From Polyangiales bacterium (GTDB lineage Bacteria; Myxococcota_A; Polyangia; Polyangiales; Polyangiaceae): a stretch of 64,000 bases of DNA. The notes beneath the pieces were generated by a model. The model did not search any database, was not told the DNA's origin, and saw only the letters and a program-made list of their open reading frames with translations. How positions within the stretch are numbered: the first letter of the stretch is position 1; every line of letters begins with the position of its first letter. Location: assembly GCA_038231275.1 (NCBI GenBank), contig JBBRLQ010000003.1:172340-236339 (forward strand), in the 5' to 3' direction. The translations under genes were made by a program, and so were the position numbers. Shown piece by piece: positions 1,211 through 24,982 of this stretch.

Positions 1211-2658
1211 GCGGCCCCCGTCGCCTCGGCGAGGAGCGACGTCTCGGTCCATGCGCTCGTGGGCCGAGCTTCACCGAGCACGCCGCGGCGCATGACGGCG
1301 ATGCGATCGCACACGCCGAGGAGCTCGGGGAGGTGGCTCGAGACGACGAGGACCGCCTTGCCGCGCGCGGCGAGCGCGTCGATCAGCCGATAAATCTGGG
1401 CTTTGCTCGCGACGTCGATGCCGCGCGTCGGCTCGTCGAGGAGCCACACGTCGACGTCCTCGTGCAGCAGCCGCGCGAGGGCGACCTTCTGCTGGTTGCC
1501 GCCCGACAGCTCGAACGCCTTCGCGTCGGGGCCGGCGCACTTGATCGAGAGCTCCTTGATGCGCGTCTCCGCTGCGGAGCGCGTCCACGACGGCGTCACG
1601 ACGAAGCCGGGCAAGCGCGAGAGCGTCACGTTCTCGCCGATCGATCGCGCGAGGAGGATGCCCTCGCCCTTGCGATCCTCGCTCACGAGGCCCATCGAGC
1701 CGTGGGCCTTCACCGAACCACGTCGCACCGAATCGAGCCCGAAGATCGCGCGCAAGAGCTCCGTCCTCCCGGCGCCGACGAGGCCCGCCACGCCGAGCAC
1801 CTCGCCGCGACGCAAGGTCAAGCTCGCGCGCTCGGGTTTGATCGCGCCGGCCACGTCGCTCACCTCGAGCGCGACCTCGCCGGGCGTCGTCGTCGTCCGC
1901 GCGAAGAGCTGCTCGATCGCGCGCCCCGCCATTTTCTCGACCAGATCGTGCGCGCTCGTCCCCTCGATGTCGCCGCTGGCAACGGTGACGCCGTCACGCA
2001 TGACCGTCCAGCGGTTGGCCACCCGCGGCAGCTCTTCCAAAAAATGCGTCACGTAGAGGACGGTCGTCCCTGCTTCGGCGATGCGCTTCACGAGATCGAA
2101 CAGGCGCGTCGCGTCGTCCGCGGCGAGGCTGCTCGTTGGCTCATCGAGGATGAGGACACGGCACCCTTCGGCTCCTACGAGCGCGCGCGCGATCTCCACG
2201 AGCTGGCGATCGCCGCTCTTCAGGTCGGCCACCTTGTCGGTCGCCGTGAACCGCCCCTTGGCGCCGCCGAGGACCTTCGCGAGGGCGGCGTCGACCTTCG
2301 CGCGACCTTCCGCGCGGAGGAGCACGCCGCCGGTCGTGGTGGGCTCGACGCCGAGGAGGATGTTCTCTTCGACCGTGAGGTGCGCGCACAGGCTCAGCTC
2401 CTGGTAGACGACGCTCACACCCAGGTCGCGCGCCTCACGCGGCGAGCGCGGCGCGAACGGCGCGCCGTCGAGCCTGATTTCCCCGGCATCCGGAGCTTCG
2501 GCGCCGCCCAGCAGCTTCATGAGCGTGCTCTTCCCCGCGCCGTTCTCGCCGAGGACCGCGTGCACCTCTCCTGCGGCCACCGAGAGATCGACGCCCCCTA
2601 GCGCGCGCGTCGCGCCGAACGCCTTGGTGACGCCGCGGATCTCGAGCCGCGAAGTCAC
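1207..2658 (-). CDS. sugar-type ABC transporter ATP-binding protein with two fused NBDs (RbsA/MglA/XylG-like)
   Basis: Walker A GENGAGKST in NBD1; ABC signature-like LSGGNQQKVALARLL plus Walker B DVWLLDEPT in NBD2; a second signature-like DLKSGDRQLVEIARAL plus Walker B ILILDEPT in NBD1. 483 aa. 4-bp overlap with the upstream SBP gene. Confidence 0.85.
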   Translation of the reverse strand: MTSRLEIRGVTKAFGATRALGGVDLSVAAGEVHAVLGENGAGKSTLMKLLGGAEAPDAGEIRLDGAPFAPRSPREARDLGVSVVYQELSLCAHLTVEENILLGVEPTTTGGVLLRAEGRAKVDAALAKVLGGAKGRFTATDKVADLKSGDRQLVEIARALVGAEGCRVLILDEPTSSLAADDATRLFDLVKRIAEAGTTVLYVTHFLEELPRVANRWTVMRDGVTVASGDIEGTSAHDLVEKMAGRAIEQLFARTTTTPGEVALEVSDVAGAIKPERASLTLRRGEVLGVAGLVGAGRTELLRAIFGLDSVRRGSVKAHGSMGLVSEDRKGEGILLARSIGENVTLSRLPGFVVTPSWTRSAAETRIKELSIKCAGPDAKAFELSGGNQQKVALARLLHEDVDVWLLDEPTRGIDVASKAQIYRLIDALAARGKAVLVVSSHLPELLGVCDRIAVMRRGVLGEARPTSAWTETSLLAEATGAA

Positions 2659-3674
2659 TCGCCGAGCCAGGTCTTGAGATCGGGCGAGAGCAGCGCCTTC
2701 ATCTCCGCGCTCTCCATGTTGTCTTTCGTGACGAGCTTCGCGCCGGTGTCGACGCGCTTCTCGACCTTGTCGCCGCGGATGACGGCGGCCATCGTCTTGG
2801 TCGCGAGGTAGCCGATCTTGAACGGGTCCTGCAGGACGAGCCCGTCGATGTCCCCTTCCTTGAGCCCCTGCACGAGCTTCTCGGAGCTGTCGAAGCCGAC
2901 GAGGTGCACCTTCTTCGCGCGGCCCGTCTTGCGGAGCGCGAGGAGCATCCCGAAGGTCGTCGACTCGTTCGGCGTGAAGACGCCTTGCACGCCTTTTTGC
3001 GCGGACAGGAGGCTCTCGCTCGTCGAAAACGCCGTCTCGGTGGTGGCGCCGCCGTAGCGTGTGTCGCTCACGACCTTCACGTTCGGGTGCGCCTTCATCG
3101 CGTCGAGGAAGCCGTTTTCTCGATTGGTCGTGCTCGCCGAGCCCTCTTGGTAGCGGAGCATGAGGACGTCGCCCTTGTCGCCGACCGCTTTCGCGAGCGC
3201 CTCGCCGGCCATCTTTCCGGCCGCGAAGTTGTCGGTCGCGACGAAGCTCGTGTGCGCGTCGCCCTGGAGGTCCGAGTCGAACACGACCACCGGGATCTTC
3301 GATTCGGCGGCGGCCTTCACCGAGCCGACGAGGCCCTTGTCGCTGAGGGGCGCGAGCACGATGCCGTTCACCTTCTGCGCGGTGAAGCTCTGCACGACGT
3401 CGATCTGCGCCTTGAGATCGTCCTCTTTGAGCGGCCCCTTCCAGATGATCTCGACGTTCTCTTCCTTGCTCGCCTTCACCGCGCCGGCGTGCACGCTCTT
3501 CCAGAACTCGTGCGTCGTTCCCTTGGGGATGACCGCGATTTTGGGCATCGCCTTTGCGAAGGTCGCGGCGCCGCCGTCGCTAACTTCCTGGATGGCCGAC
3601 TTGTCTTTCGGACACGCGGTGAGGGCGGCGAGGGCGAGCGGCAGCGCGATGGCGGCGAGGAGGGACGAGCGCAT
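2655..3674 (-). CDS. periplasmic sugar-binding lipoprotein (PBP type I, RbsB-like substrate-binding protein)
   Basis: Signal peptide plus lipobox (LALAALTACPKD). Periplasmic-binding-protein fold motifs (KIAVIPKGTTHEFWKSVHAGA.., ..VATDNFAAGKMAGEAL..). Translationally coupled to the ABC ATPase. Confidence 0.85.
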   Translation of the reverse strand: MRSSLLAAIALPLALAALTACPKDKSAIQEVSDGGAATFAKAMPKIAVIPKGTTHEFWKSVHAGAVKASKEENVEIIWKGPLKEDDLKAQIDVVQSFTAQKVNGIVLAPLSDKGLVGSVKAAAESKIPVVVFDSDLQGDAHTSFVATDNFAAGKMAGEALAKAVGDKGDVLMLRYQEGSASTTNRENGFLDAMKAHPNVKVVSDTRYGGATTETAFSTSESLLSAQKGVQGVFTPNESTTFGMLLALRKTGRAKKVHLVGFDSSEKLVQGLKEGDIDGLVLQDPFKIGYLATKTMAAVIRGDKVEKRVDTGAKLVTKDNMESAEMKALLSPDLKTWLGE

Positions 3675-4050
3675 GTCTCGTTTGTATCGCGCATTTGGTC
3701 TACTGGGTCATCCCGTGACCGCCGACAAGACCTCCGAGCCGTCGCCCGCGCGGTCGAGGAGGACCTCCCGCACCAGCGGGACCTCCGGAACGAGCGGAGC
3801 CTCCGGCACCAGCGGGACCTCCGGAACGAGCGGAGCCTCCGGAACGAGCGGAACCACCGACGCTGGGGCCGGCGACAGCGGTTCGCCGACGGGCTTCTGC
3901 GACGTGAGCACGGCCATCCAACAAGAGCTCTACACGTTCGAGTACGCGAGCCTGACGAACCCTGTGCCATGCGTAAACAACGGAGCGTGCGCGGCGACGC
4001 AGTGTTGCTACCAGGCGGCGGCGGCACAGACCGCGTGCGTAGCGAAGTGA
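3672..4050 (+). CDS. small (TSG)n-repeat protein with Cys-rich C-terminus carrying a CCY..AAA motif; tentative
   Basis: ORF with GC-biased third positions. C-terminus (CVNNGACAATQCCYQAAAAQTAC) resembles the CCYRGDAAAT motif of the two Cys-rich paralogs at 15609..16746. No recognisable signal peptide from ATG 3672. Lies in the promoter gap of the SBP operon. Confidence 0.3.
3770..3855. repeat. tandem repeat (about 36-bp unit x2 plus partial) encoding (TSG)/(ASG) triplets
   Basis: caccagcgggacctccggaacgagcggagcctccgg repeated directly. Confidence 0.6.
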
Positions 4051-4069
4051 AGCGCCTCCACGCGCCGCT

Positions 4070-5818: not shown

Positions 5819-6280
5819 ATGCGTACCCTCCTTTCGCTCTCTCTCGGGGCCTTGCTTCTCGTCGCGTCCGCGGGCGCGTGCTCATCGTCGTCGTCGTCCC
5901 CGGCGGCGCAGTGCAACACGAACCCGTACTCGTGCGCGGCAGGCACGACGTGCTGGCCCACCGATCAGAAGGCCGACTTCGCGTGCATCGCGAGCGGCGC
6001 TGGCCAAAAGGGAGACTCGTGCCTCAACACGCCGAACGCGGCGACGTGCGGGGACGGCATGCTCTGCTTGCAGCAGACGCAGACCGACGGCCACTGCGTG
6101 CCGTACTGCGACAGCACACACGGGTGCCCGACCGGGCAAGCGTGCACGCCGGCGCAGCTGATCGGGACGAGCCAAATCGCGCACGTCTGCTTCGGCGCCG
6201 GCGGCGGCACCACCGACGCGGGCTCGGGCGGCGACGCCGGGAGCGATACGGGTACGGCGAGCGACGCGGCCTCCGAGTAA
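5819..6280 (+). CDS. small secreted cysteine-rich lipoprotein (153 aa)
   Basis: Signal peptide plus lipobox (MRTLLSLSLGALLLVASAGAC); about 16 Cys in a patterned mature region; Gly/Ser/Asp-rich tail. Same strand as, and 206 bp upstream of, the giant lipoprotein gene. Confidence 0.5.
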   Translation: MRTLLSLSLGALLLVASAGACSSSSSSPAAQCNTNPYSCAAGTTCWPTDQKADFACIASGAGQKGDSCLNTPNAATCGDGMLCLQQTQTDGHCVPYCDSTHGCPTGQACTPAQLIGTSQIAHVCFGAGGGTTDAGSGGDAGSDTGTASDAASE

Positions 6281-6486: not shown

Positions 6487-9400
6487 GTGCCTCGCTCAAT
6501 GCATCGTCTTCTTCCGCTTGGACTCGTCCCCGCGTTCGTCGTCTCCTTCTTCTTCCTCGTCGCCGCTTGCAGCGGCAACGGCTCGAGCGGAGGGACCGTC
6601 GATGTCCCCGACGGAGGCGACGCCGGAGTCCCGCCCGACGGCGACGTCGACGCGTGCACTGGCGCCTGTCCGGGAGACGACGGCGGAACGAAGCCGCCCG
6701 AGGTCACATGCAAGATCTTGGCGCCGCTCGCCGCGGGCACGTGCGCGGTCACCGCGGGCAGCGCCGCGAAGTTGATCGTCGGCACGATCCTCACTTCGGC
6801 GCAGATCTTCCGCGGCGGCGCGGTGCTCGTCGACGACAAGGGAAGCATCGCGTGCGTCGGCTGCGACTGCGAGGCGAAGGCGCAAGGCGCGACGACGATC
6901 ACGTGCCCCGACGGCGTCGTCTCGGCGGCGCTCCTCAACACGCACGACCACATCACCTTCTCGCAGAACAACCCGTACACCGACACCGGCGAGCGCTACG
7001 AGCACCGCCACGACTGGCGCTCCGGCAAGAACGGACACAAGAAGCTCACGACGCCGGGCGGCGCGTCCGCCGATCAGGTCCGTTGGGCGGAGATCCGCTT
7101 CCTCATGAGCGGCGCGACGTCGACGGTCGGCTCCGGCAGCGTGGCCGGCCTCCTCCGCAACCTCGACAAATCGGCCGACGAGCTCGGGCTGAACCAGAAG
7201 CCCGTCGACTTCGAGACGTTCCCGCTCGGCGACTCGAACTCCACCCAGCTCGCCACCGGCTGCGCGTATCCGTCGATCCGCACGCCCGCGTCGATCGCAG
7301 GAGACGACGCGTTCTTGCCGCACGTCGCCGAGGGCATCAACGCCTTCGCGACGAACGAGTTCACGTGCCTCAGCACGACGACGGGCGGCGCGCAGGATCT
7401 CGTCCAGCCGAAGACGGCGATGATCCACTCCATCGGCCTCACCGCCGCCGACTACGCGGACATCGGTCAGAAGGGCGGCTCGATCATCTGGTCGCCGCGC
7501 TCCAACATCACGCTCTACGGCGACACCGCGGTCGTCACCGAAGCGGCGCGCCTCGGCGTTCGCATCGCGCTCGGCACCGACTGGATCGCCACCGGCTCGA
7601 TGAACATCGCGCGCGAGATCCGCTGCGCCGACGATTTCAACAAGACGTTCCTCGGCGGGTTCTTCTCCGACGTCGACCTGTGGAAGATGGTTACGGTCGA
7701 CGCGGCGCATGCGACGGCGACCGACGACGTGATCGGCGATCTCGCGGTCGGCAAGGTCGGCGACGTCTCGATCTTCGCAGGGAAGACGCACAAAGATCAT
7801 CGCGCGATCCTCGACGCCGCGCCGGCGGATGTCGTGCTCGTCATGCGCGCCGGTAAGGTGCTCTATGGCGACGACGATGTGGTCGTAGGCGCGGCGCCGG
7901 CCGCAGTGTGCGACGCGCTCGATGTGTGCGGCACGCCCAAGAAGATGTGCGTGCAGGACGAGTTCGGGAAGAACCTCGCGGCGGTGAAGGCGGCGGCGGG
8001 AGCCGCGATTTACCCGGCGTTCTTCTGCGGCACGCCGACGAACGAGCCTTCGTGCACGCCCAAGCGACCCACCTCGGTGTCCGGCTCCACCGTGTACACG
8101 GGCGTTCCTTCGGCGACCGACGCCGACGGCGACGGCCTCGCGGACGCCGCCGACAACTGCCCGAAGATCTTCAACCCGATCCGCCCGATGGACAGCGGAA
8201 AACAAGCCGATTTCGACGGCGACGGCACCGGCGACGCGTGCGACGTGTGCCCGCTCGACGCGAACTCGACGACCTGCAAGAAGTTCAACGGCAACGACAC
8301 CGACGGCGACGGCGTCGACAACGCGGCCGACAACTGCCCCACGGTGGCCAACGCCGATCAGGCCGACAAGGACGCGGACGGCAAGGGCGACGCGTGCGAC
8401 GCGTGCCCGGCCATCGCGAACCCCGGCGCGCTGGCGTGCCCCGCCACGATCTACGACATCAAGAAGGGGACCGTCGCGACGGGGACGTCGGTGTCGATCG
8501 CCAACACGATCGTCACCGGCAAGGCTGCGAGCGGCTTCTTCGTTCAAGCGAAGACGGGTGATCCCGGGTACGCAGGCACCGATTACTCCGGCATCTTCGT
8601 GTTCCAGAGCGCGAGCGCCGCGCAGGTAGGTGATCGCGTCACGATCACGAGCGCGACGGTGGCGACGTTCAACGGACAGATCGAGCTGACCGCGCCGGCG
8701 GTGACCGTGGTGACCTCCGCGAGCGAGGCGCCGCCCGACCCGGTGGTGGTGACCGCCGCCGACGTCGTGACGGCCGGACCGAAGGCGACCGCGCTCGAGG
8801 GCGTCGTCGTCCAGGTGAACGGCGCGACGGTGACCGACGTGGCGCCGCCGCCTGGTTCGGGCGACACCGCGCCGACGAACGAGTTCGTGCTCGATGCAGG
8901 CGTGCGCGTGAACGACTTCCTGTTCCTCGCGGCGCCGTTCCCCACCACGGGGACGCTATTTTCTTCGGTCGCCGGCGTCCTCGAGCTCAGAAACGGCAAT
9001 TCCAAGATCGAGCCGCGGAGCGCCGCGGATCTCGTCCTCGGCCCCGCGCAGCTGAGCGCGTTCAACGAGGCGTCGACGTTTGCGCGCGTCGGGCAGACCG
9101 GCGCGCCCACGTTGCCGACGCCGCTCACCGTCTCCCTCACGTCGGCGCCGACCGTCGACATGTTCGTCGCGATCGTGCCAAGCGACGCCGCGAGCCTCAC
9201 CATCGTCGGCGGTGGCGCGACGGTCACCGCCGGCCAGACGAGCGCGACGGTGCTCGTGAACGGCCTCGTGCAAGCGGCGTCGGTAACGTTGACGGCGACG
9301 CTCGGCGCGCAGACGCGGACCGCCACGGTGCGTGTCGTCGGCGCCGCGGAGGTGCCTTCGCTCACGTCGCTGACGCCGCCGAGCCTCGTCGTCGCGCCGG

Positions 9401-10188
9401 GCGGGACCACGACGTTCACCGTCGGTCTCGACCTGCCGGCGCCGGTCGGCGGGGTCACGATCGCCCTCTCCCTCGCGCCCGCGAACGCGGGGACGATCCC
9501 CGCGTCTGTGACGGTGGCCACCGATCAGACGAGCGCCACGTTCTCCTACGCCGACGCGAGCACGGTCACGAGCGCGACGGTAACCGCGACGCTCGGCGCG
9601 GCGACGTTGAACGCGACGATCACGCTGCAAGCGGCGGCGGGTGGCCTCGTCATCAACGAGGTCGACTACGACAACGTCGGCACGGACACCGCCGAGTTCG
9701 TGGAGATCTACAACGCGTCGTCCGCGCCGATCGATCTCACTGGATTTTCGCTGCTGCTCGTCAACGGCGCGAACAACGCGGTCTACCGCACCGTCGACCT
9801 CGGCCCCGCGGGGACGCTCGCCGCCGGTCAGTTCCTCGTCGTCGGCGCCACGAGCGTCGTCGCGGCGAGCGGCGCGCTCAAGATCGATCTCGGCGCCCTC
9901 ACCGACATCGTCCAGAACGGCGCGCCGGACGGCGTGGCCCTCGTCGATACGTCCACGAACAAGCTGGTCGATGCGCTGTCGTACGAAGGCTCCATCATCG
10001 CGGCGGTCATTCCGGGCGTCGGAACGGTGAGCCTCGTCGAAGGCACCGCGCTCGCCGCGACCGTCGCCGACTCGAACACGACGGCCGGCTCGCTCTGTCG
10101 CCTGCCGAACGGCGCGGACACCAACGACGCAAACACCGACTGGAAGCTCTCGTCGGCGGCGACGCCGGGCGCGGCGAACGTCAACTGA
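6487..10188 (+). CDS. large multidomain lipoprotein: metal-dependent amidohydrolase domain + thrombospondin type-3 (Ca-binding) repeats + Ig-like/low-complexity region + C-terminal lamin-tail domain (LTD)
   Basis: Signal peptide plus lipobox ([10 protein letters not shown]). Amidohydrolase HxH motif ([10 protein letters not shown]). TSP3 repeats ([20 protein letters not shown].., [38 protein letters not shown]). LTD-like C-terminus ([45 protein letters not shown]). Confidence 0.8.
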
Positions 10189-11778: not shown

Positions 11779-13278
11779 TCAACCGTCTGTCTTGTAGGGG
11801 TTTGGACGCGGCTCGGGGGTCGTGGCCGGCGGCGGCGTCGGGGGCGCGACGGGCGGCGGCGTGGTCGCGGCGGATGGCGGCAGCGGCGGCGGCGTGCCGC
11901 GAGGGGGACGCGTTCGCGGGGGACCCGACGCGTGTGCCGGCGTGCTCGCGCTCGGCTCGGCCGCCGTGGCGGTGGTCGGGGGCACGGCCGCCCCACCGGA
12001 GCTCGCAGGTTCGGCGGCGCTGGCGGCGAGCGGCGGCGGCGCGACGGGCGCCGCGAGCGGCGTGGACGGGACGTCGGTGGTCGCGGGAGCCTCGCGTCTC
12101 TTCATTCGCGGAACGACGACGGCCGCCGCACCGCCCGCGACCACGAGCGCCGCCACGACGGCGATCGCGCCACGCCTGGACCGCGGCGGCGCTTGCCTCG
12201 GCGCGACCTGCTGCGCGGTGACGGGAGCGCCGGTCTTGGACGACGCCTCTTGCGCGTACACGAGCGTGGGCTTCGCGGCGGCCATTCGCGCCGACGGCGA
12301 CGGCGCGGCGAGCGTGGGCATCTCCCCGATCGCCTTTCCGTCGCGAGGCGTGAGGCCCGCCCTGCGCGCGTCGAGCGACTCGCCGAACGAAGACCGCACG
12401 AGCTGCGCCACCTCCCCGTGCGCCGCGAGCCCCACCGGCCGCGCCGCCGCGTAGAGCGCGTCGGCGAGCGCCTCCATCGTGGGGAAGCGATCGTCCGGCG
12501 ACTTGGCGAGCGCGCGCGCGACGATCGCGTCGAACGCGGTGCCGAGCGCCACGCGCTCCGACGAGACGGGCGGCGGCACGTAATAGAGGAGGCGCATGAG
12601 CGCTTCGGCCTCGTTTGCCGCCGCGAAGAGCTGCTTGCTCGCGAGCCCCTCCCAGAGCACGACGCCGAGCGCGAAGACGTCGGCGCGGCGGTCCACGCCC
12701 TTGCCTTGCAGGTACTCGGGCGCCATGTACCCGAGCTTCCCCTTCAGCATGTCGCCGGTGGATGCCATGCCGGTGTGCGCGACGCATTTGGCGATGCCGA
12801 AGTCGCTGACGCGCGAGACCCCGTCGACGCCGACGAGCACGTTCTGAGGAGAGACGTCGCGGTGCACGAGGCCGAGAGGGCGACCTTCGCGATCCTTCGC
12901 CTCGTGAGCGGCGTGCAGACCGCTCGCTGCGTCGAGCACGACGCGCAAGAAAATCGCCGGCGTGGGGCCCGCGTCGCCGACGGCGAGGAGCTCGGCGAGC
13001 GAGACGCCGTCGATGTACTCCATGACCATCGTGACGGACGCGCCGTCGAGCTCGACGTCCCGAACGGCGACCACGTTGGCATGGCGGATGAGCGCCGAGA
13101 CGTACGCTTCTTTGACGAACATGTCGCGGAACGACTTCTGCTCGAGCAAATGCGGATGCGGCCTCTTCAGCGCCACGAGCTGCTCGAAGCCGAGCGCGCC
13201 GCGGACGCGACCCACGTAGACCTGCGCCATCCCTCCCGACGCCAGCTTGCCGACGATCTCGTAGCGGGTCGCGGTCAC
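11779..13278 (-). CDS. Ser/Thr protein kinase (Hanks-type) with Pro/Ala-rich C-terminal tail and a single TM-like segment
   Basis: Kinase subdomains: GxGxxG (GKLASGGMAQVYVG), VALK, HRDVSPQNVL, DFG (SDFGIAK), APE (MAPEY). Probable GTG start at 13276..13278. Confidence 0.85.
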   Translation of the reverse strand: MTATRYEIVGKLASGGMAQVYVGRVRGALGFEQLVALKRPHPHLLEQKSFRDMFVKEAYVSALIRHANVVAVRDVELDGASVTMVMEYIDGVSLAELLAVGDAGPTPAIFLRVVLDAASGLHAAHEAKDREGRPLGLVHRDVSPQNVLVGVDGVSRVSDFGIAKCVAHTGMASTGDMLKGKLGYMAPEYLQGKGVDRRADVFALGVVLWEGLASKQLFAAANEAEALMRLLYYVPPPVSSERVALGTAFDAIVARALAKSPDDRFPTMEALADALYAAARPVGLAAHGEVAQLVRSSFGESLDARRAGLTPRDGKAIGEMPTLAAPSPSARMAAAKPTLVYAQEASSKTGAPVTAQQVAPRQAPPRSRRGAIAVVAALVVAGGAAAVVVPRMKRREAPATTDVPSTPLAAPVAPPPLAASAAEPASSGGAAVPPTTATAAEPSASTPAHASGPPRTRPPRGTPPPLPPSAATTPPPVAPPTPPPATTPEPRPNPYKTDG

Positions 13279-13291
13279 GGGGAGGCGCGCC

Positions 13292-14200
13292 TCACAAGGA
13301 TCCCCGTAGGCCGGCCACGGCACCCCCCGTCGTCGGGGAGAGGACGAACGCGGTCTCACCGGTCTTCCAGCGAACCGCGAACAGCGCGAGCGCGCCGGTG
13401 ACCACGGCGGCGGCGGCGGTGACTCCGAGGAGCACGTTCGTGCGCACCACCGCCGCCCGTCCGTCGTCGACGAGCCCCGCGCACCCGGTGTGCGCGGCCT
13501 GATCGCACCGGTCGGTCACGAAGACGTCGTGCTGCCGGATGGCGTCGGTCCCCGACCAGATCGTGACGCCGCCAACGACCGCGGTCACGCCGAGGCCGAC
13601 CCACACCCACGCAGGCGACAGGCCCCCCTCGGGCGCGCGGGGCGGCGGAGGCTTTGCAGGCTCTGCGGTCGGCAATACGATCTCCTCGAGGGCGCCAGCG
13701 CGGAGCTCGATGGGCCGCTCGATCGCGCGCGCACCGTCGCGAACGACCACGAGGTGCTTGCCCGCCGTGATCCACGAGATCACGTTGGGCGCCACCGCGC
13801 CGCCATCGATCGTCGCGCTGCACGTGCCGCAGGCGACGCGGACGCGGCCCACGCGACCTCCGAACTTCGCGCGGAGCTTGGCCGCGAGATCAACGGCGGC
13901 GCCCTCTCCGTTACGCGCCGCCGCGCGGGCCGTGAGGGTCATGCCGAGCGCGGCGTCGTCGGCGTGCAGCGCCGCCTCGAGCGCGGAGAGGAGCGCGACG
14001 TCGTTGGGCGCGATCTCGTCGGCGCGCGCGAACTCCTGGGCCGCGGTCGCGAAGTCTCCTCGCCGTTGCGCCTCGGCGCCGCGGTCGTACGCGTCGCTCG
14101 CCGCGCGAGAGCGCGCGGTGTCCTCCGCGCGGGCACGTGGAACGGCCGTGAATGCGGCGACGGCAAGCAGCAGACTCACGCACCGCGCGGCTCGGAACAC
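13292..14200 (-). CDS. secreted TPR-like / PEGA-like protein with C-terminal transmembrane segment
   Basis: Signal peptide (LLLAVAAFTAVPRARAED); helical TPR-like N-terminus; PEGA-like stretch (VRVACGTCSATIDGGAVAPNVISWITAGKHLVVV); TM near C-terminus. 13 bp upstream of the kinase gene. Confidence 0.55.
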   Translation of the reverse strand: MFRAARCVSLLLAVAAFTAVPRARAEDTARSRAASDAYDRGAEAQRRGDFATAAQEFARADEIAPNDVALLSALEAALHADDAALGMTLTARAAARNGEGAAVDLAAKLRAKFGGRVGRVRVACGTCSATIDGGAVAPNVISWITAGKHLVVVRDGARAIERPIELRAGALEEIVLPTAEPAKPPPPRAPEGGLSPAWVWVGLGVTAVVGGVTIWSGTDAIRQHDVFVTDRCDQAAHTGCAGLVDDGRAAVVRTNVLLGVTAAAAVVTGALALFAVRWKTGETAFVLSPTTGGAVAGLRGSL

Positions 14201-14219
14201 CGCCGAAGTATACCCCGCG

Positions 14220-15587
14220 TCAGGAGCGGTGTCCGGTCCCGTACTTGGCGAGCATTCGGCCGAGGTGCGTGCGATCGAGCCCGGCGATTCGTGCCGCCGC
14301 CGACTGGTTGCCGTGGGTTTGCGCGAGGAGCGCGCGCAGGTAGACGACGGTGAACCGCTCGATCATCGCATCCTTCAACGTCGCGTACGGCTGCGACATG
14401 TCGAGGAGCTCCGAGAAGACCATGTCGAGCTTGTCCGAGCGACGAGAGAGGACCTCGGGCAGCTCGCCGAGCGCCGCGTACGCGTACACGGCGTTCCGCA
14501 GCTCGCGGACGTTGCCGGGCCAAACGCGCGCGTGCAAGCGGGGCAGGACCTCGGGCGGCAGGCCGGTGAGCCCCGCCTCCTTCGCGAAGCGATTGGCCAA
14601 GACCTCCACGTCCTCGACGCGATCGCGCAGCGCGGGCACGTTGAGGCGGACGATCGCGAGGCGGTAGAAGAGATCCTCACGGTACTGACCGGCGCCGACC
14701 TCCGCGAGGAGATCGCGGTTGGTCGCCGCGACGACGCGCACGCGCACCTTGCGCACCGAGTCGCCGCCGACCGGGCGGATTTCGCCTTCCTCGAGCGCGC
14801 GGAGGAGCATCGGCTGCACGTCGAGCGGGAGCTCGCCGATCTCGTCGAGGAAGAGCGTGCCGCCGTCGGCCGACTCGAACGCGCCGCGCCGCGCCTCCGA
14901 GGCGCCGGTGAACGCCCCTTTTTTGTGGCCGAACAGCTCGCTGGCGATGAGCTCGCGCGAGAACGCGCCGCAGTTGACGGCGACGAACGGCGCCTTCGCG
15001 ACCTTGGAGCGCGCGTGGAGCGCGCGGGCGACCAGCTCCTTGCCGACGCCGGACTCCCCCTCGACCAGGATCGGCACGAGCGACCCTTCGAGCCGAATGA
15101 GCGCGGCGAACAGCCGCTGCATCGCCGGCGAGTGCCCGAGGATGCCCGCGTACTCGGTCACCGGGAACGGGATCTTCGCGTCCAGTCCTTCGGTGTCGGC
15201 GCCGATGAGGACGCTCGGGCGACCGACCGAGATGCGACTTCCCGGCGCCAGCACCATCCCCTCCACGCGCTGGCCGAGGTAGAACGTGCCGTTGCGGCTC
15301 CCCAGATCGCGGACGAGCACGCCTTCGGGCGCGAGCTCGAGCTCGAGGTGGCGGCGCGAGACCGTGGGATCCGCGATGACGATGTCACAGTCCGGCGCCG
15401 ATCCGATGACGCACTTGCCGCTCGTCAGGCGGAACGCCTTGGGCTCCGCCGCGGCGTCCACGCACCGCAGCACCACCCCGAGCGGGCCGTCCATCTTCGC
15501 CGCGCTTCGCGGCATCACGTCGGTCACCGCCACAGCCGCGCCCGGCGGATGGGGCGGCGGCGGCTCGTCGCGAGGCCTTCGGGTCAT
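14220..15587 (-). CDS. sigma-54-dependent transcriptional activator with N-terminal FHA domain (FHA-AAA+-HTH bacterial enhancer-binding protein)
   Basis: FHA core (IGSAPDCDIVIADPTVSRRHLELE..GSRNGTFY). AAA+ Walker A GESGVGKE, GAFTGA, ESELFGH. Sigma-54 contact motif matching consensus GAFTGA. Arg-finger region. C-terminal Fis-type HTH (AARIAGLDRTHLGRMLAKYG). Confidence 0.9.
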   Translation of the reverse strand: MTRRPRDEPPPPHPPGAAVAVTDVMPRSAAKMDGPLGVVLRCVDAAAEPKAFRLTSGKCVIGSAPDCDIVIADPTVSRRHLELELAPEGVLVRDLGSRNGTFYLGQRVEGMVLAPGSRISVGRPSVLIGADTEGLDAKIPFPVTEYAGILGHSPAMQRLFAALIRLEGSLVPILVEGESGVGKELVARALHARSKVAKAPFVAVNCGAFSRELIASELFGHKKGAFTGASEARRGAFESADGGTLFLDEIGELPLDVQPMLLRALEEGEIRPVGGDSVRKVRVRVVAATNRDLLAEVGAGQYREDLFYRLAIVRLNVPALRDRVEDVEVLANRFAKEAGLTGLPPEVLPRLHARVWPGNVRELRNAVYAYAALGELPEVLSRRSDKLDMVFSELLDMSQPYATLKDAMIERFTVVYLRALLAQTHGNQSAAARIAGLDRTHLGRMLAKYGTGHRS

Positions 15588-15608
15588 CTGCCAGAGTCTA
15601 CTTCATCG

Positions 15609-16178
15609 CTACCGGCAGACCGTGAACGGAGTAGGGGCGGAGGTGGTCGTCGCGCAGGTGACGCCGGCGTCGATGGCGGCGCACTCGTCGTAGCTCGCGC
15701 AGAGGATTACGCCGCCCGCGCCGTTGCAATCCTTGGGCGTCTTGCACACGGCGCTCGGCGGCTTGCTCTCGGAGGTCCAGCCCGAGAAACAGCACACCGA
15801 GCCCGCCCCGCAGTTGGCGGCGGACAGGCAGTCGTACACCGAGCACGTGAAAGCTCCGCTGCTGCACTCGAAGGTCGTCGCCGCCGCGTCGCCGCGATAG
15901 CAGCACGTCTTCGGGCTCGCGCACCCAGGGCACGGCGGCTGCGGGCCCGCGTCGATGTCGGCGTCAGTGACCGCGTCGCCGCCGGCATCGCCCGCGTCCG
16001 AACCGCGCGGGCCCGCGTCTCCCTGCGCGTCTACGACCGTCGAGTCGGACGGCGCGTCCGCCGCGGCGTCGGGGCTCGGCCCGAGGTTGAAGTCGACGCC
16101 GCATCCGGCGCACGTCGCAGCGGCGACAATCGCCACGAACGAGGAGACCGGCAAGAGGACCACGTCATTGGCAAACAT
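15609..16178 (-). CDS. secreted cysteine-rich protein, CCY-motif family, paralog 2 (189 aa)
   Basis: Start MFANDVVLLPVSSFVAIVAAATCAGC (signal plus lipobox-like). About 20 Cys; motif TCCYRGDAAATTFEC shared with the adjacent paralog. 14-bp overlap with the upstream paralog. Confidence 0.55.
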   Translation of the reverse strand: MFANDVVLLPVSSFVAIVAAATCAGCGVDFNLGPSPDAAADAPSDSTVVDAQGDAGPRGSDAGDAGGDAVTDADIDAGPQPPCPGCASPKTCCYRGDAAATTFECSSGAFTCSVYDCLSAANCGAGSVCCFSGWTSESKPPSAVCKTPKDCNGAGGVILCASYDECAAIDAGVTCATTTSAPTPFTVCR

Positions 16179-16746
16179 AGAAAGGCTCCCGTGGCTTCGT
16201 GCAGGTGATGAAGCTCGCGGACTTCGGACAGTCCTGGTCGAAGCTCTGGCAGAGGACTTGTCCGGTGACCCCGCCCTCGGTGCCGAGGCACGAGTCGACG
16301 GTCTCGCACGCCGCCAGGAATGCGAAGTTGGGCGAGAGGCTGGGCCGCTTGCAGCACACGCCGGGGTAACACTGGCTCGTGGCCGTGCAGCGGTAGTACT
16401 CGTCGCAGGAGACGGGCGCCGTGCACTCGAACGGCGTGGCGGCCGCGTCGCCGCGGTAGCAGCAGCCGGCGTCGCATGCTCTGCCGATGCAGATGAGGTC
16501 GCTCGCGGCGTCGCGTTCGTCGCCGGGCAGCGGCGCGCCGTCCTCACCGGCGGAGACGTCGGAGCCTGCGTCTGCGTGAGCGTCGGGGCGCGCGTCCGCT
16601 GCGCCGTCCTCGCCGCCATCGACACCGACCGTGTTCGCGTCCGGCGCGGGGTCGAACGACAACATGCACCCGACGCCCACCGTCGCGACCGCCACCATGA
16701 TGGTGACGGCGACGAGCACGCGGCGACGAGGACGAAAGCGCGCCAT
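16165..16746 (-). CDS. secreted cysteine-rich protein, CCY-motif family, paralog 1 (193 aa)
   Basis: Signal peptide plus lipobox (MARFRPRRRVLVAVTIMVAVATVGVGC). Motif GCCYRGDAAATPFEC; about 20 Cys; Asp/Gly-rich linker. Confidence 0.55.
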   Translation of the reverse strand: MARFRPRRRVLVAVTIMVAVATVGVGCMLSFDPAPDANTVGVDGGEDGAADARPDAHADAGSDVSAGEDGAPLPGDERDAASDLICIGRACDAGCCYRGDAAATPFECTAPVSCDEYYRCTATSQCYPGVCCKRPSLSPNFAFLAACETVDSCLGTEGGVTGQVLCQSFDQDCPKSASFITCTKPREPFYVCQ

Positions 16747-16795
16747 TATGGTGAGTCTAGCTCCAGCGGCTGCGCGCGACCTTCGGCATCTCGGT

Positions 16796-18619
16796 TCATT
16801 GGCCGACGAAGCTCCGGTAGAGGATCTTGGCGATCTGGGCGCGCGTGAGGCTCGCGTTCGGCCGGAACGTGCCGTCGCCGTAGCCGTCGATGAGCTGGTG
16901 CGAGTGCGCCGCCTCGACGTACCCGTAGAACGCGTTGTCGCGCGGCACGTCGGTGAACGTCGGCGTCTGCGGATCCTCGGGAGCCCAGCCTTTGCCGAGG
17001 ACGAACATCTTCACGGCTTGCCCGCGCGTCAGCGTGTTCTGCGGCCGGAAGGTGCCGTCCGAATACCCGCCGATGATCCCGTTCGCGGCCAGGGTCTCGA
17101 CGTACTGGAAGCGCGGGTCTCCGGTCGACACGTCCGAGAACGTCGCCCCGCTCGGGCTCGCGAGGGGCAACGTGCCGTAGCGATGACCGGACGCGGCGAT
17201 CGTGCCGTACGTGAGCGCGCGCCCCAGCGCGGTGGCGAGCTCGCCGCGCGTCGGCAGGTGGCCGGCGCCGAAGTTGCCGTCGGGCTGGCCGTCGAGAATT
17301 CCGTCGGCGGCGAGCCCTTCGACGAACGTGTACGCCCAGTCGTTGGGCGGCTCGTCGAGGAACTTCTGGCCACTCCAGAACTCATCGGGCACGCCACGCG
17401 ACGGATCGCCGGTGAGGCCGCGCAGCTTCTGCCAGACGTCGTCCCGCACGGCGCCCCCCGCCAGGCGCGTGCCGAAATGCTTGGGGCCCGGATCGTCGTC
17501 GATCGCGTCGTACCAAAGCGCCGCGTGGACCGACCACGCCCACGGGCTGTCGGTGTGGAACGCCTCGTACGACGCCTGCATCGCCGCGCGCATTTGGTCG
17601 GGCGTGCGCACGCAGTTGTGGAAGACGCCCATGTCGTCGGGGCACGGCTGCGACCAGCCGGTGGGGGGCGATTGCCAGCCGAACTCGGTGACCATCAGCT
17701 CGGTGCGCGTGCCGCTCACCTGCTGGAGGCGGTCACGCACGTGCGCGATGTCGTCCTTGACCCACTGCTTCCAGCCGCCGAAGCAGTCCACGCGATCGGG
17801 GGACGTCGCGTTCACGCAGGCCAGGTCGACCTTCGCGCCGTCGTACGGGTGCACCGCCATGAAGTCGAACGGCATGAACGCGGCGTTCTCGGCGCAGCCG
17901 TACAGGGCCGGCGCGGGCGCGACGCAACGGAACGCGCCCGACGTGAAGAACGGCTCGTACCAGCCTGTCTCGTCGCGCGCGTACGTGTTCGCGGTTCCCG
18001 CGGAGACGACCTTGATGTCGCTCCATCGCCCGCCGGCGAGCAGGTGCTCCTTCACGCGACGCGCGAGCCACGCGGTCATGTTGCCGCCCCATCGGCTGCC
18101 GTTGATTTCGTTGCCGGTCTCGATTGCGTCGGGGTGCGCGGCGTTCGACGCGAAGGCTTCCTGCAGGAGTGGGTCGAGACGGTTCTGCACGTAGTCCTGG
18201 ATGTCGGCGTCGGCGGCCGGGCAGGGGACGTGCTGGCCGGGCGGGCAATCGAGCGGCGCCTGGAGGACGACGACCACCTGGAGACCGTGGGCGTGCGCCT
18301 TCTCCACGAGCTGGCCGAGGAGCGCGTTCGAGAGACCGCCCCAGCCGGCCTCCACGCGAATCCATCCCACGCCGAGCCCCGTCGTGATCTCGCCGAAGAA
18401 CGCGTCGCCGTTCGCGTCGAGGCGGTGCGCGCCGGACTGGTAGATGCCGCCGGTGACGACGCCGAACCGCGTGCCCTCGGCGCCGGAGGCGTGGGCGTCG
18501 AGCGGCGTCGCGCCGACGGCGTTCCCTTCGCCCGGTCCTTGGCCTTCGCAGGCGGCGACGATCGCCAGCGCGACACAGGAGAGGGCTCGACCGAAAAGAC
18601 CACGATTCGGATTCGGCAT
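16796..18619 (-). CDS. secreted glycoside hydrolase (GH5-like/clan GH-A) with three C-terminal S-layer homology (SLH) domains
   Basis: Signal peptide plus lipobox (VALAIVAACEG). Clan-A catalytic motifs (IETGNEINGS; VTEFGWQ). Three SLH-like repeats (..DGYGDGTFRPNASLTRAQIAKILY). Start chosen at internal Met with signal peptide (18619). Confidence 0.75.
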   Translation of the reverse strand: MPNPNRGLFGRALSCVALAIVAACEGQGPGEGNAVGATPLDAHASGAEGTRFGVVTGGIYQSGAHRLDANGDAFFGEITTGLGVGWIRVEAGWGGLSNALLGQLVEKAHAHGLQVVVVLQAPLDCPPGQHVPCPAADADIQDYVQNRLDPLLQEAFASNAAHPDAIETGNEINGSRWGGNMTAWLARRVKEHLLAGGRWSDIKVVSAGTANTYARDETGWYEPFFTSGAFRCVAPAPALYGCAENAAFMPFDFMAVHPYDGAKVDLACVNATSPDRVDCFGGWKQWVKDDIAHVRDRLQQVSGTRTELMVTEFGWQSPPTGWSQPCPDDMGVFHNCVRTPDQMRAAMQASYEAFHTDSPWAWSVHAALWYDAIDDDPGPKHFGTRLAGGAVRDDVWQKLRGLTGDPSRGVPDEFWSGQKFLDEPPNDWAYTFVEGLAADGILDGQPDGNFGAGHLPTRGELATALGRALTYGTIAASGHRYGTLPLASPSGATFSDVSTGDPRFQYVETLAANGIIGGYSDGTFRPQNTLTRGQAVKMFVLGKGWAPEDPQTPTFTDVPRDNAFYGYVEAAHSHQLIDGYGDGTFRPNASLTRAQIAKILYRSFVGQ

Positions 18620-18669
18620 GCGCAGGGGCTCCTTGGAAGGGCGCGCTCGACGTCGCGCGGAGACACCTT

Positions 18670-18686
18670 CAGCAGCCGGCATGCCA
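18670..18686 (-). promoter_or_regulatory. candidate sigma-54 promoter (minus strand reads TGGCATGCCGGCTGCTG) upstream of the SLH-glycosidase gene
   Basis: Matches the TGGCAC-N5-TTGCW architecture, with GG and GC dinucleotides at the canonical spacing. About 40 nt upstream of the 18619 start. Confidence 0.4.
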
Positions 18687-18760
18687 CGACGCGTTCGTGG
18701 GAGAACGCAGCACACTTCAGGTTGCGCCGCGATCCGATTGCGGCATCCACCCCGACGATC

Positions 18761-18778
18761 TGCGGCATCGATGCCGCA
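18761..18778. promoter_or_regulatory. 18-bp perfect palindrome TGCGGCATC|GATGCCGCA, with an upstream half-site copy at 18738..18747; candidate enhancer/UAS between divergent sigma-54-like promoters
   Basis: Exact inverted repeat read from sequence. Lies between the promoter candidates at 18670..18686 and 18821..18836. Confidence 0.4.
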
Positions 18779-18820
18779 GACTCGAAATCGAAATCGTCTC
18801 TATTTTGCCTGAGGATCGCG

Positions 18821-18836
18821 TGGCGCGCGGTGTGCA
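18821..18836 (+). promoter_or_regulatory. candidate sigma-54 promoter TGGCGCGCGGTGTGCA upstream of the 18850 gene
   Basis: GG/GC elements at -24/-12-type spacing. The -12 GC is 14 nt before the ATG, implying a near-leaderless transcript if real. Confidence 0.35.
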
Positions 18837-18849
18837 GAAATGAACCGAA

Positions 18850-19761
18850 ATGCACCACCCCACTCGTCGAACCGCATCGGGTCCTCTGCTCCTCTCCTTC
18901 TTCTCGATCGCATGCGCGACCGGCGCCCCCGCGTGCTCGAGCGACGCCGCCGCGCCCGAGGCGCCGACCGAGCAAGCCCAGGCCTGGGGCACCCCGTGGA
19001 CGATGGACGGCGCGTTCGCCGACGAGCTCCGCGAGGTCACCGGGGACGATCCCGTCGGGCTCACCGCGTTCTGGCGCGGCACGAACGCGAGCGGCCGCTA
19101 CGACGGCGCGTACTTCCAGACGTGGCCCGGCGAGCGCATCCACGTCGGAGCGCTCGTCATCACCGGCTCGGGCAAGGCCGATGCGGGGCAGAACGATCTG
19201 AAGACGTTCCCGTTCCCCGACGGCGCCACCATCATCCCGTGTCTGCAATCGGTCGGCGGCATCCAGAGCGCGTACATGATCCGCACGAGCAACGGGATCG
19301 AAGCGCGCAAGCGCCTCGCGCAGTACGACGTCACCGGCTCGGAGCTCTTCGGGCACAGCGCCGGCGCGTGGGTCGCCGTCGTGATGGGCATCCTCGGTCG
19401 CGCGTCGCGCGTCGACGTGTACGGCGTCCCGTTCTTCTTCCCCATCCACGGCGAGCTCACGTGGGGGAGGACGACCATCGGCTTCCACACGCACGCGCAC
19501 GATCCGGTCGGCTTCGGGTTCGACGTGCCGGCGATGCTCGGTGCGATGGAGTACAACCAGATCCGGTACGGAGACGCGCAGCGCGAGCACGACACCTACC
19601 GCGATCCGGAGCCGGCCCAGACCCCGCTCACGGAAGACGAGTGGACGCGCGTTCGCGAGTACCTGGTCATCCGGCTGGAGATCGCGCTCGGGAAACTCCC
19701 CATCGACACGTGCTGGGGCAAGCCGTGCGTGGCCGATCACATGGGCGGTTCGGGCCTTTGA
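18850..19761 (+). CDS. secreted alpha/beta-hydrolase-like lipoprotein (GxSxG serine motif)
   Basis: Signal peptide plus lipobox (LLLSFFSIACATG). GHSAG nucleophile-elbow-like motif. Downstream His/Asp-rich region. Confidence 0.5.
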   Translation: MHHPTRRTASGPLLLSFFSIACATGAPACSSDAAAPEAPTEQAQAWGTPWTMDGAFADELREVTGDDPVGLTAFWRGTNASGRYDGAYFQTWPGERIHVGALVITGSGKADAGQNDLKTFPFPDGATIIPCLQSVGGIQSAYMIRTSNGIEARKRLAQYDVTGSELFGHSAGAWVAVVMGILGRASRVDVYGVPFFFPIHGELTWGRTTIGFHTHAHDPVGFGFDVPAMLGAMEYNQIRYGDAQREHDTYRDPEPAQTPLTEDEWTRVREYLVIRLEIALGKLPIDTCWGKPCVADHMGGSGL

Positions 19762-23479: not shown

Positions 23480-24982
23480 ATGCGCCTCTCTCTCGTCGTC
23501 GCCCTGCTTCCTCTCCTGTCGGTCGCCGCGTGCGGCGGGCGCTTCCAAGCCATCGACGATGGGTCGAGCGGCAGCAGCGGGTCGAGCGGCAGCAGCGGGT
23601 CGAGCGGCAGCAGCGGGTCGAGCGGCAGCAGCGGGTCGAGCGGCAGCAGCGGATCGAGCGGCAGCAGCGGATCGAGCGGCAGCAGCGGATCGAGCGGGGA
23701 CGTGGGGGGCCTCACGCTGGGCTCGTACGATCTGACATTTTCTCTGGTGACGCAGGACACGCAAGGTGGCCTCTTTGGGCCGCCGCCGTCGATCAACCAC
23801 GCGTTCCGCGTGGATCTCGTAGAGAGCAAGGGGACCGTGCTCGGGCTGGTGACGCCACGATGGGGCGCGCCGTCGATCTACTCCGTGGCGATCGAGCCGA
23901 GCTCCGTGGTGCTGAGCGGCAAGGGGAAGTACAGCGAGAATTTTTCGACCGACACGTGGAGCACGATCACGATCTGGCGCGTCCACTCCGGCGGGCTTTC
24001 GGCGAGCTTCGACGCGACCGGCGTGGAGGACGCGAGCGGTGGCGACATCATCGCGCACGGCAACATCCGCGGGAGCGGCTTCCTTACCGTCGACGCGCTC
24101 GCGCCGGAGGTCCGCATCGGCGCGACGTCGCCCATGGGGCCCGAGGGCGCGCTCCTCCCCTGGGATCCGATCACGCTCACGTTCGCCGAGACGGTGTCGA
24201 GCGCCGGCGATCCGTTCGCCAGTTTCGCCATCACCTCGAACGGCGGCGCGCCCGTCGGTCTGAAGGTCGACGCTCCGGTGAACGCCCCGGCCCCGTTCGC
24301 CGGAGTCATCGCCGGCGCAGCGCGCCTCACGAGCTTCGCCCCGATCGGCGCCTCGACGGTCGCGTGGCCCAATGGCCTCGCCGATCCCGCCGGGCACGCG
24401 CTCGGCGCCGTGAAGCAGCCGCTTTCGTTCCTGCCGCTGCCGGTCTCCCTGAAGCAGCACACCTTCGACGGCGACGTCGTGACCGTCGGCACCTGGGGCT
24501 CCACGACGCTGCTCGGCGGGCTCGGCGGCCCCGACGCGTCGTGCGAGAGCGGCGGCTGCGCGCAGATCGGCTCCTTCCTCGATGGGTATTGCCAGGGGCA
24601 GACGCAGCGCCTCGGCGTCGCCGCGCGCCTCGATACGAGCGCGGCGACCGGCATCTCGATTCGCTACCGCGTCTTCGTCGAGGACAAGGGTAGCGGCGCG
24701 CCGTACATTCCTGCGGCATTCGCGGTGCAGACGGCGGCGCCGGGCTCGAACGTCCACACCGAAAGCGTCAACCCGACGCCTAGCGATTGGAAGAAGCTGG
24801 CCGCGCCGTGGAAGGGAATGGGCTGGGCGACCGACTGGACCACCATGAGCTTCGGCGTGCCCATCGCGAAGGAGACCGGCGTAGGCATCATCGCGGGCAG
24901 CGGCCCCAACTCGAGCCCGTGCGGCCTCGTCCCCGCGCCGTCGAACGTGATCGTCCTCGTCGACTCGATCTCCGCGAACTAG
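23480..24982 (+). CDS. lipoprotein with long (SSG)n linker and about 430-aa C-terminal domain of unknown function
   Basis: Signal peptide plus lipobox (LLPLLSVAACGG); (SSG)x~17 run; remaining sequence has no motif recognised by eye. Confidence 0.65.
   Translation: MRLSLVVALLPLLSVAACGGRFQAIDDGSSGSSGSSGSSGSSGSSGSSGSSGSSGSSGSSGSSGSSGSSGSSGDVGGLTLGSYDLTFSLVTQDTQGGLFGPPPSINHAFRVDLVESKGTVLGLVTPRWGAPSIYSVAIEPSSVVLSGKGKYSENFSTDTWSTITIWRVHSGGLSASFDATGVEDASGGDIIAHGNIRGSGFLTVDALAPEVRIGATSPMGPEGALLPWDPITLTFAETVSSAGDPFASFAITSNGGAPVGLKVDAPVNAPAPFAGVIAGAARLTSFAPIGASTVAWPNGLADPAGHALGAVKQPLSFLPLPVSLKQHTFDGDVVTVGTWGSTTLLGGLGGPDASCESGGCAQIGSFLDGYCQGQTQRLGVAARLDTSAATGISIRYRVFVEDKGSGAPYIPAAFAVQTAAPGSNVHTESVNPTPSDWKKLAAPWKGMGWATDWTTMSFGVPIAKETGVGIIAGSGPNSSPCGLVPAPSNVIVLVDSISAN
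23561..23696. repeat. 18-bp tandem DNA repeat (about 7.5 copies; GGGTCGAGCGGCAGCAGC with a G/A variant) encoding (SSG)n
   Basis: Near-perfect copies; two sub-variants (gggtcg.. x5 then ggatcg.. x3). Confidence 0.8.

Follow-up and report, generated by a model that had tools for sequence, protein, structure and literature searches.

Two tandemly duplicated cysteine-rich genes, candidates for lineage-restricted envelope lipoproteins, next to an FHA-sigma54 activator gene in a Polyangiales bacterium

Envelope lipoproteins of Myxococcus xanthus are sorted by residues close to the lipidated cysteine: a lysine at +2 directs the protein to the inner membrane and an alanine at +7 directs it to the matrix (PMC3222651). 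Here we describe two adjacent minus-strand genes, A and B, each encoding a cysteine-rich protein of about 190 amino acids, in a 64,000-nucleotide stretch of DNA (the window) from a Polyangiales bacterium (GenBank assembly GCA_038231275.1, contig JBBRLQ010000003.1, positions 172,340 to 236,339). The two products resemble the M. xanthus envelope lipoproteins in having a predicted type II-like signal, a putative +1 cysteine, no +2 lysine, a low-complexity segment and a globular domain. They differ in that the globular domain has no relative in the collections searched and in that the signal peptide of B is atypical. Similar lipoprotein-like starts are found at other genes of the window (2655..3674, 5819..6280, 16796..18619 and 18850..19761), and the genes at 23480.. 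and 55456.. look lipoprotein-like by eye. On balance, we favor the explanation that A and B are real genes, duplicated in tandem and coupled in translation, for lineage-restricted cell-envelope lipoproteins.

Other cysteine-rich systems offer partial likenesses. Knottins are defined by six cysteines with a knotted I-IV, II-V, III-VI connectivity and short loops between the cysteines. As in inhibitor cystine knots and conotoxins of framework VI/VII, variable loops are set on a fixed cysteine scaffold in A and B, and each half of their domain reads C-x(2-5)-C-x(3-5)-CC-x(11-14)-C-x(5-6)-C. Disintegrins (PF00200) likewise are cysteine-rich exported proteins with an Arg-Gly-Asp (RGD) tripeptide in a cysteine-bounded loop; A and B, however, have no Pfam match at an E value of 10 or below, a different cysteine spacing and a bacterial lipoprotein context. 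The colipase fold (prokineticin/MIT1 and the Dickkopf Cys-2 domain) presumably starts C-x5-C-x4-CC, like the last 10 cysteines of A and B, and the CGAGSVCC of B resembles what we take to be a prokineticin CGAGTCC, although no test confirmed either likeness. The later spacings differ from that fold, A and B have no CxC, and neither matched a colipase-fold family (prokineticin, Dickkopf, colipase) in Pfam or among PDB sequences at E<=10. Nor was there a Pfam match at E<=10 to hevein or the type 1 chitin-binding domain (PF00187). The cysteine-rich repeat proteins of Myxococcus (TIGR02232, including the TraA stalk; PMC3325183) are extracytoplasmic modules from the same phylum, but A and B match no NCBIfam or Pfam model at E<=1 and lack a MYXO-CTERM tag, their C termini (...FYVCQ in A and ...FTVCR in B) having no hydrophobic tail.

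The initial annotation of the window described A and B as overlapping tandem paralogues with a common cysteine spacing, and alignment of the two products bears this out. BLASTP aligned them over their full length (E=2e-16, 33% identity), with 37 to 40% identity in the C-terminal domain of about 110 residues. Each domain contains 16 cysteines, which make up 14% of its residues; 14 of them share an alignment column between A and B, and the remaining 2 are offset by one or two residues. By our arithmetic, the chance that all 16 would survive at about 40% identity is roughly 0.4^16, or about 4e-7. The longest identical run is the CCYRGDAAAT singled out in the initial annotation, which is followed by (P/T)FEC to give a block that is identical at 13 of 14 positions (Table 1). 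The DNA encoding the block carries three synonymous differences (TAC/TAT once and GCC/GCG twice) and one nonsynonymous difference, and across the domain 16 of the 42 identical residues are encoded by different codons. Because identical residues are specified by differing codons, identity has been kept at the protein level and does not reflect recent gene conversion. Nei-Gojobori analysis gave proportions of synonymous and nonsynonymous differences (pS and pN) of 0.53 and 0.46 and a ratio of nonsynonymous to synonymous substitution (dN/dS) of about 0.75 (range, 0.7 to 0.8), and the sequence beyond the cysteines and the CCYRGDAAAT loop appears to be weakly constrained. The first 12 cysteines can be read as two C-C-CC-C-C units. 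Internal duplication of a six-cysteine unit was hinted at by this spacing but was rejected, as hhalign of the two halves aligned the CC dipeptide alone, with a probability of 4%. We conclude that A and B are paralogues that conserve a cysteine framework and one loop.

That the frames might not be translated, and that the real gene might lie in another frame or on the other strand, had been raised as a way in which the initial annotation could fail. The window has a G+C content of about 70% throughout, and G+C at third codon positions (GC3) was 0.87 in A and 0.90 in B, compared with 0.88 to 0.92 in neighbors with clear Pfam domains and only 0.69 in the plus-strand open reading frame (ORF) at 15955..16848 that overlaps the pair. 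Codon-position G+C thus marks the A and B frames as coding. The protein collection (NCBI and Logan) stores exactly the A and B products, the 189-residue form of B fitting an ATG start, and Logan gene calls on a read-set assembly match both genes with the same start for B. Moreover, a Logan contig of 3,220 bp from run SRR19962015 is 100% identical to 15287..18506 of the window, and therefore the overlap and the frames are not an assembly error. The ATG of B lies inside the 3′ end of A, such that 14 bp are shared, and a Shine-Dalgarno sequence, GGGAG, is found 7 nt upstream of it. An alternative GTG start for B, one base past the stop codon of A, lacks a comparable ribosome-binding site. We conclude that both frames are genuine, and we infer from their arrangement that translation of B is coupled to that of A.

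Both products have the same three-part architecture: a hydrophobic N terminus, a linker (about 55 residues) with a high content of Asp, Ala, Gly and Pro, and the 16-cysteine domain. The N termini were compared with a PS51257-type rule, which calls for a Lys or Arg in the n-region, a hydrophobic h-region and a lipobox of the form [LIVMFWSTAG](2)-[LIVMFYSTAGCQ]-[AGS]-C, with the cysteine at residue 15 to 35. Gene A conforms to the rule at Cys27, with three Lys or Arg among its first seven residues and a maximum 12-residue hydropathy of 2.99, and its assignment as a lipoprotein is supported. In B, the maximum hydropathy is 2.52 and Cys26, which lies within TCAGC, aligns with Cys27 of A; lipoprotein status is plausible for B, and its export is likewise plausible and less certain than that of A. 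The lipoprotein or secretory character first proposed for the pair thus holds for A by the rule and for B as a plausible reading. At the M. xanthus sorting positions A has Met (+2) and Pro (+7) and B has Gly (+2) and Leu (+7), so that neither sorting signal is present. By those rules the outer membrane would probably be the default destination of both proteins, allowing that the species here is a different one.

Relatives of A and B were sought widely. Nothing rose above noise in Pfam or NCBIfam (E<=1 for full proteins and E<=10 for Pfam searches with subdomains), no PADLOC or PHROGs model matched either protein, and there was no real match among PDB sequences at E<=10; one apparent match to a "covalent dimer" of HIV protease was an artifact of summing two domain matches with E values of 13 to 15 each. 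When 5.8 billion proteins were searched with a word-indexed method, A as the query returned A alone, and a profile of A and B at E<=10 returned A and B alone. An exhaustive HMMER search with the profile, covering 1.84 billion cluster representatives that stand for about 15 billion proteins, likewise returned only A and B. No relative was found by scanning species-representative genomes, JGI metagenomes and viral contigs with back-translated patterns, or by tblastn against plasmids. In a database this large an E value of 0.001 needs about 45 to 50 bits by our estimate, such that relatives sharing only the cysteine pattern could escape and further paralogues in the same genome would be visible only above that threshold. 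The "family" of the initial annotation therefore consists of A and B alone: a conserved cysteine pattern is present within the pair, and the profile searches found none outside it.

Orphan status is unremarkable for this genome, as all proteins of the window that the collection contains are singletons when grouped at 90% identity and about half of the neighbors tested have no Pfam domain. The total lack of relatives among about 15 billion proteins is notable, and its simplest explanation is fast drift beyond the cysteine scaffold in a poorly sampled lineage. We conclude that the cysteine-rich domain of A and B is previously undescribed and that the kind of protein that carries it, the myxobacterial-type envelope lipoprotein, is very common.

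Read in the direction of transcription, the minus strand carries an SLH-domain lipoprotein gene (P0005), A, B, a gene for an enhancer-binding protein with FHA, sigma54-interaction and helix-turn-helix domains (the activator), a gene for a 302-residue exported protein, and a Ser/Thr kinase gene (Table 1). Successive genes are separated by 49 nt (P0005 to A), −14 nt (A to B), 21 nt (B to the activator) and 19 nt (the activator to the next gene), so the pair indeed lies directly upstream of the activator, as initially reported. No terminator-like site was found in 13000..19200 and no RNA family in 13000..19500. With the start used here, P0005 agrees with the product in the protein collection. Its N-terminal domain, for which there is no Pfam family, was modeled by AlphaFold with a core predicted local distance difference test (pLDDT) score of 70 to 90 and matched GH30, GH113, GH53 and GH5 structures of clan GH-A by Foldseek (E of about 3e-5). 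A single close homologue of P0005 was present among the 5.8 billion proteins (P0008, 63% identity, on a Logan contig). Relatives of the activator, with up to 47% identity, were found in Myxococcota metagenome-assembled genomes and in Kofleriaceae, Nannocystis and Sandaracinaceae genomes. Several of them adjoin a Ser/Thr kinase gene (L002 6970..9152, L004 7170..9305 and L015 5669..10988), the two genes being divergent in L002 and L004, which supports the view that the pairing of kinase and FHA activator is conserved independently of A and B.

Upstream of the SLH gene lies a 230-bp divergent intergenic region (18620..18849). On the SLH side, TGGCAT-N5-CTGCT has the correct GG-N10-GC spacing of a sigma54 −24/−12 element, and GGAG precedes the ATG of the SLH gene. 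A second sigma54-like element (18821..18836, plus strand) faces the divergent gene and is only 13 nt from its ATG. Between the two elements is a perfect 22-bp palindrome, a third half-site of which occurs 22 bp away (18739..18747). Two sigma54-like matches in 230 bp compare with about 0.05 expected by our arithmetic. Neither A nor the activator gene was found to have a sigma54 promoter with two or fewer mismatches immediately before it, and the 49-nt gap before A contains no GG-N10-GC element. Together, the pair of sigma54-like matches, the palindrome and the presence of an activator gene are suggestive of sigma54 control and fall short of proof; the FHA-sigma54 activator, whose gene lies 3 kb downstream, may use the palindrome region as an enhancer. 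The divergent gene itself (18850..19761, plus strand) encodes a 303-residue lipoprotein with no Pfam or NCBIfam family and a GHSAG motif that suggests a serine hydrolase or lipase.

Taken as envelope lipoproteins, A and B would each be exported by way of the N-terminal signal peptide and lipidated on the lipobox cysteine (Cys27 in A and Cys26 in B), and both would probably reach the outer membrane, as neither has the +2 Lys retention signal for the inner membrane of M. xanthus. There, an acidic, disordered tether of about 55 residues would hold a compact domain of about 110 residues locked by eight disulfides. A fixed scaffold with one invariant loop and drift elsewhere is the pattern expected of a disulfide-framed binding module, and the module would present the CCYRGDAAAT(P/T)FEC loop to an extracytoplasmic ligand. 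The pair would probably be cotranscribed with the SLH-anchored, glycosidase-like lipoprotein and the FHA-type activator from the candidate sigma54 promoter with its upstream palindrome. In such a circuit the Ser/Thr kinase would act on the FHA activator, which with sigma54 would switch on A and B as part of an envelope or matrix-remodeling program.

Several observations weigh against parts of this account. The n-region of B has no Lys or Arg and its lipobox has a cysteine at −3, and B thus fails the strict lipobox rule. The sigma54-like element before the SLH gene contains two mismatches, and across the window elements of this kind are no more frequent than chance predicts (13 found, 14.2 expected). 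Only two sequences are available, so that conservation of the loop is indistinguishable from limited divergence time, and a dN/dS near 0.75 also fits weak overall constraint. An AlphaFold model of the cysteine-rich protein had a pLDDT of 53 and was unusable, and fold searches gave noise. P0008 is followed by an alpha/beta hydrolase gene and not by A or B, DNA similarity to the window stopping with the SLH gene, and no A/B-like or comparable cysteine-rich ORF lies beside the activator relatives in other Myxococcota. Because the homologues of both neighbors occur without them, A and B look like a lineage-specific addition to the locus.

The alternative that fares best, although we consider it unlikely, is that A and B inhibit or modulate extracytoplasmic hydrolases, either the adjacent SLH glycosidase or foreign proteases and glycosidases, with the loop entering the active site. 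A conserved scaffold with one conserved loop is typical of small cysteine-rich inhibitors, and such a scaffold with a single conserved loop is what A and B have. Moreover, the genes adjoin that of a glycosidase-like lipoprotein, and the GHSAG lipoprotein is transcribed divergently. No inhibitor family was matched in Pfam, NCBIfam or PDB, however, and the closest relative of the glycosidase is not accompanied by A/B-like genes, which makes an obligate pairing of enzyme and inhibitor improbable.

A second alternative, also unlikely and slightly more so, casts A and B as fast-evolving lipoproteins with an effector- or toxin-like role against other cells, passed on by outer-membrane vesicles or outer-membrane exchange, an arms race having restricted them to one lineage. 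Myxobacteria reportedly deliver lipoprotein toxins through outer-membrane exchange. The absence of homologues among about 15 billion proteins, the near-neutral change at positions other than cysteine and the tandem duplication are all consistent with such a role. Yet neither protein has a toxin domain, there is no separate immunity-like gene (A and B being paralogues of one another), no PADLOC, PHROG, Pfam or NCBIfam model matched, and nothing ties the pair to the SitA families.

A bolder version of the binding-module account, which we regard as improbable, is that the domain is a new eight-disulfide fold with the YRGDAAAT loop as its recognition element, acting either as a disintegrin-like adhesin or ligand mimic or as the extracytoplasmic signaling partner of the kinase/FHA/sigma54 circuit. 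If this version were true, the operon would encode a switch together with its own surface ligand.

Less probable still is that the cysteines bind a metal or cofactor instead of forming disulfides, with A possibly exported by the twin-arginine translocation (Tat) pathway. The 14% cysteine content of the domain and the n-region RPRRRVLV of A, which weakly resembles a twin-arginine motif, would fit. But A scored 12.5 bits (E=0.15) against the Tat signal model TIGR01409, below its 16.7-bit cutoff, and B, with no Arg in its n-region, gave no match. Moreover, neither models nor motifs of the CxxC or CxxCxxC iron-sulfur or metallothionein type were found, and an even number of cysteines (16) in an exported protein favors disulfides. 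We give equally little credence to the proposal that A and B are nonfunctional, whether as open frames that arose by chance in GC-rich DNA or as pseudogenes in decay. DNA of 70% GC often contains long open frames, and the lack of homologues and the dN/dS of about 0.75 are compatible with that proposal; against it, the high GC3 is confined to these frames, the Shine-Dalgarno sequence of B is well placed, and the 16 cysteines, the signal-peptide architecture and 13 of the 14 block residues were retained in both genes through many synonymous changes.

The least probable alternative is that the RGD makes A and B disintegrin-like adhesins or ligand mimics, with an integrin-type or other RGD receptor of a eukaryotic partner or prey as their target. 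Disintegrins present RGD in a similar way, and in both proteins the tripeptide is unaltered despite synonymous changes and occupies a loop of 11 residues flanked by CC and C. Against this, the six-frame translation of the window contains 112 RGD tripeptides, such that a few percent of domains like these should carry one by chance, neither a disintegrin model nor another RGD-family model matched, and the source is an apparently environmental Myxococcota-like bacterium with no known integrin-bearing host. The initial annotation was thus right to leave the relevance of RGD undecided. We return to the reading of A and B as lineage-restricted envelope lipoproteins.

A third, truncated member of the family had been proposed at 3672..4050, and this proposal was not supported. 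The ORF begins with ATG at 3673 and has no hydrophobic N terminus (maximum hydropathy of 0.73, versus 2.5 to 3.0 in A and B). When the full domain and its two halves were each run as profiles against the six-frame translation of the window, the ORF was not matched even at E values of 20 to 100, and tblastn gave only a 19-residue match (E of 0.13 to 0.43) in a register other than the one first proposed. The DNA of its N-terminal half is an 18/36-bp tandem repeat (3763..3859), and the ORF has a codon-position G+C of 0.52/0.71/0.79. An antisense ORF of 69 amino acids (3708..3917) shares its third positions and has a genome-typical profile of 0.84/0.49/0.86, and it is this antisense product that the protein collection stores from NCBI, neither tested form of the plus-strand product being stored. 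On the evidence of profiles, N terminus, repeat DNA and stored antisense product, we do not count the ORF as an A/B family member. CCY occurs four times in the six-frame translation, and in three of these (A, B and the 3673 ORF) it is followed by an Ala run, an observation made post hoc. The CCY and Ala run of the ORF remain a motif-level coincidence, and the ORF might conceivably be a decayed fragment.

Table 1. Coordinates of A and B, of their parts and neighbors, and of the ORF first proposed as a third member
Feature	Position	Strand	Description	Basis
Gene A (P0001)	16165..16746	-	193 aa; predicted signal peptide with lipobox, acidic linker, 16-Cys domain	ORF, GC3, stored product, Logan call, paralogue of B
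Gene B (P0002)	15609..16178	-	189 aa; architecture as in A; ATG inside the 3′ end of A	ORF, GC3, stored product, Logan call
A/B overlap ATGTTTGCCAATGA	16165..16178	-	14 bp, start of B to stop of A	Read directly from sequence
A residues 1-27 MARFRPRRRVLVAVTIMVAVATVGVGC	16666..16746	-	Predicted signal peptide with lipobox Cys27	PS51257-type pattern
B residues 1-26 MFANDVVLLPVSSFVAIVAAATCAGC	16101..16178	-	Hydrophobic N terminus	Cys26 aligns with Cys27 of A
A linker, residues 28-85	16492..16665	-	Acidic, Asp/Ala/Gly/Pro-rich, low complexity	Aligns loosely with linker of B
A 16-Cys domain, residues 86-193	16168..16491	-		Alignment with B; profile match of 203 bits within window
B 16-Cys domain, residues 83-189	15612..15932	-		Alignment with A; profile match of 187 bits within window
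A block CCYRGDAAATPFEC	16423..16464	-	Most conserved segment	A/B alignment
B block CCYRGDAAATTFEC	15864..15905	-		A/B alignment
SLH lipoprotein (P0005)	16796..18619	-	607 aa; 3 C-terminal SLH domains (E=1e-35), N-terminal glycosidase-like (beta/alpha)8 domain	
Sigma54-like −24/−12 element TGGCATgccggCTGCT	18671..18686	-	About 52 nt 5′ of the SLH gene ATG; candidate operon promoter	
Perfect 22-bp palindrome TCTGCGGCATC/GATGCCGCAGA	18759..18780	.	About 85 bp upstream of the −24 GG; candidate activator-binding site	
Activator	14220..15587	-	FHA, sigma54-interaction (GAFTGA) and HTH_8 enhancer-binding protein; ATG at 15587	Pfam FHA, Sigma54_activat, HTH_8
Exported protein	13292..14200	-	302 aa, no family	Pfam/NCBIfam
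Ser/Thr protein kinase	11779..13359	-	Two genes downstream of activator	
Candidate third ORF (rejected)	3673..4050	+	ATG at 3673 (not 3672); ends QCCYQAAAAQTACVAK	

The tandem repeat at 3763..3859 lies in a 395-bp gap (3675..4069) between sugar-binding-protein-like and sugar-kinase-like genes, and it reads (TSG)n on the plus strand and as a Pro-rich PEVPLV repeat on the minus strand. Elsewhere in the window, a small lipoprotein-like ORF (5819..6280, plus strand; MRTLLSLSLGALLLVASAGAC...) has about 13 cysteines, an Asp/Ala/Gly/Ser-rich C-terminal tail and a GC3 of 0.91. Profile search found it to be unrelated to A and B, and its product as delimited here is absent from the protein collection. 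Two large lipoprotein-like genes are also present on the plus strand, one (6487..10188) with amidohydrolase, thrombospondin type 3 repeat and lamin-tail domains and the other (23480..24982) with a collagen-like Gly-Ser-Ser repeat.

None of the evidence points to a new mechanism. If A and B are what they appear to be, they would add one more lineage-specific cysteine-rich pair to the Myxococcota-like surface proteome, which is useful as annotation and unsurprising as biology. The pair would carry greater weight if the domain proved to be a new disulfide-rich fold, if the loop bound specifically and if the sigma54/FHA/kinase circuit controlled the genes. Were all three true, the locus would be a compact, testable case of kinase-gated expression of surface proteins.

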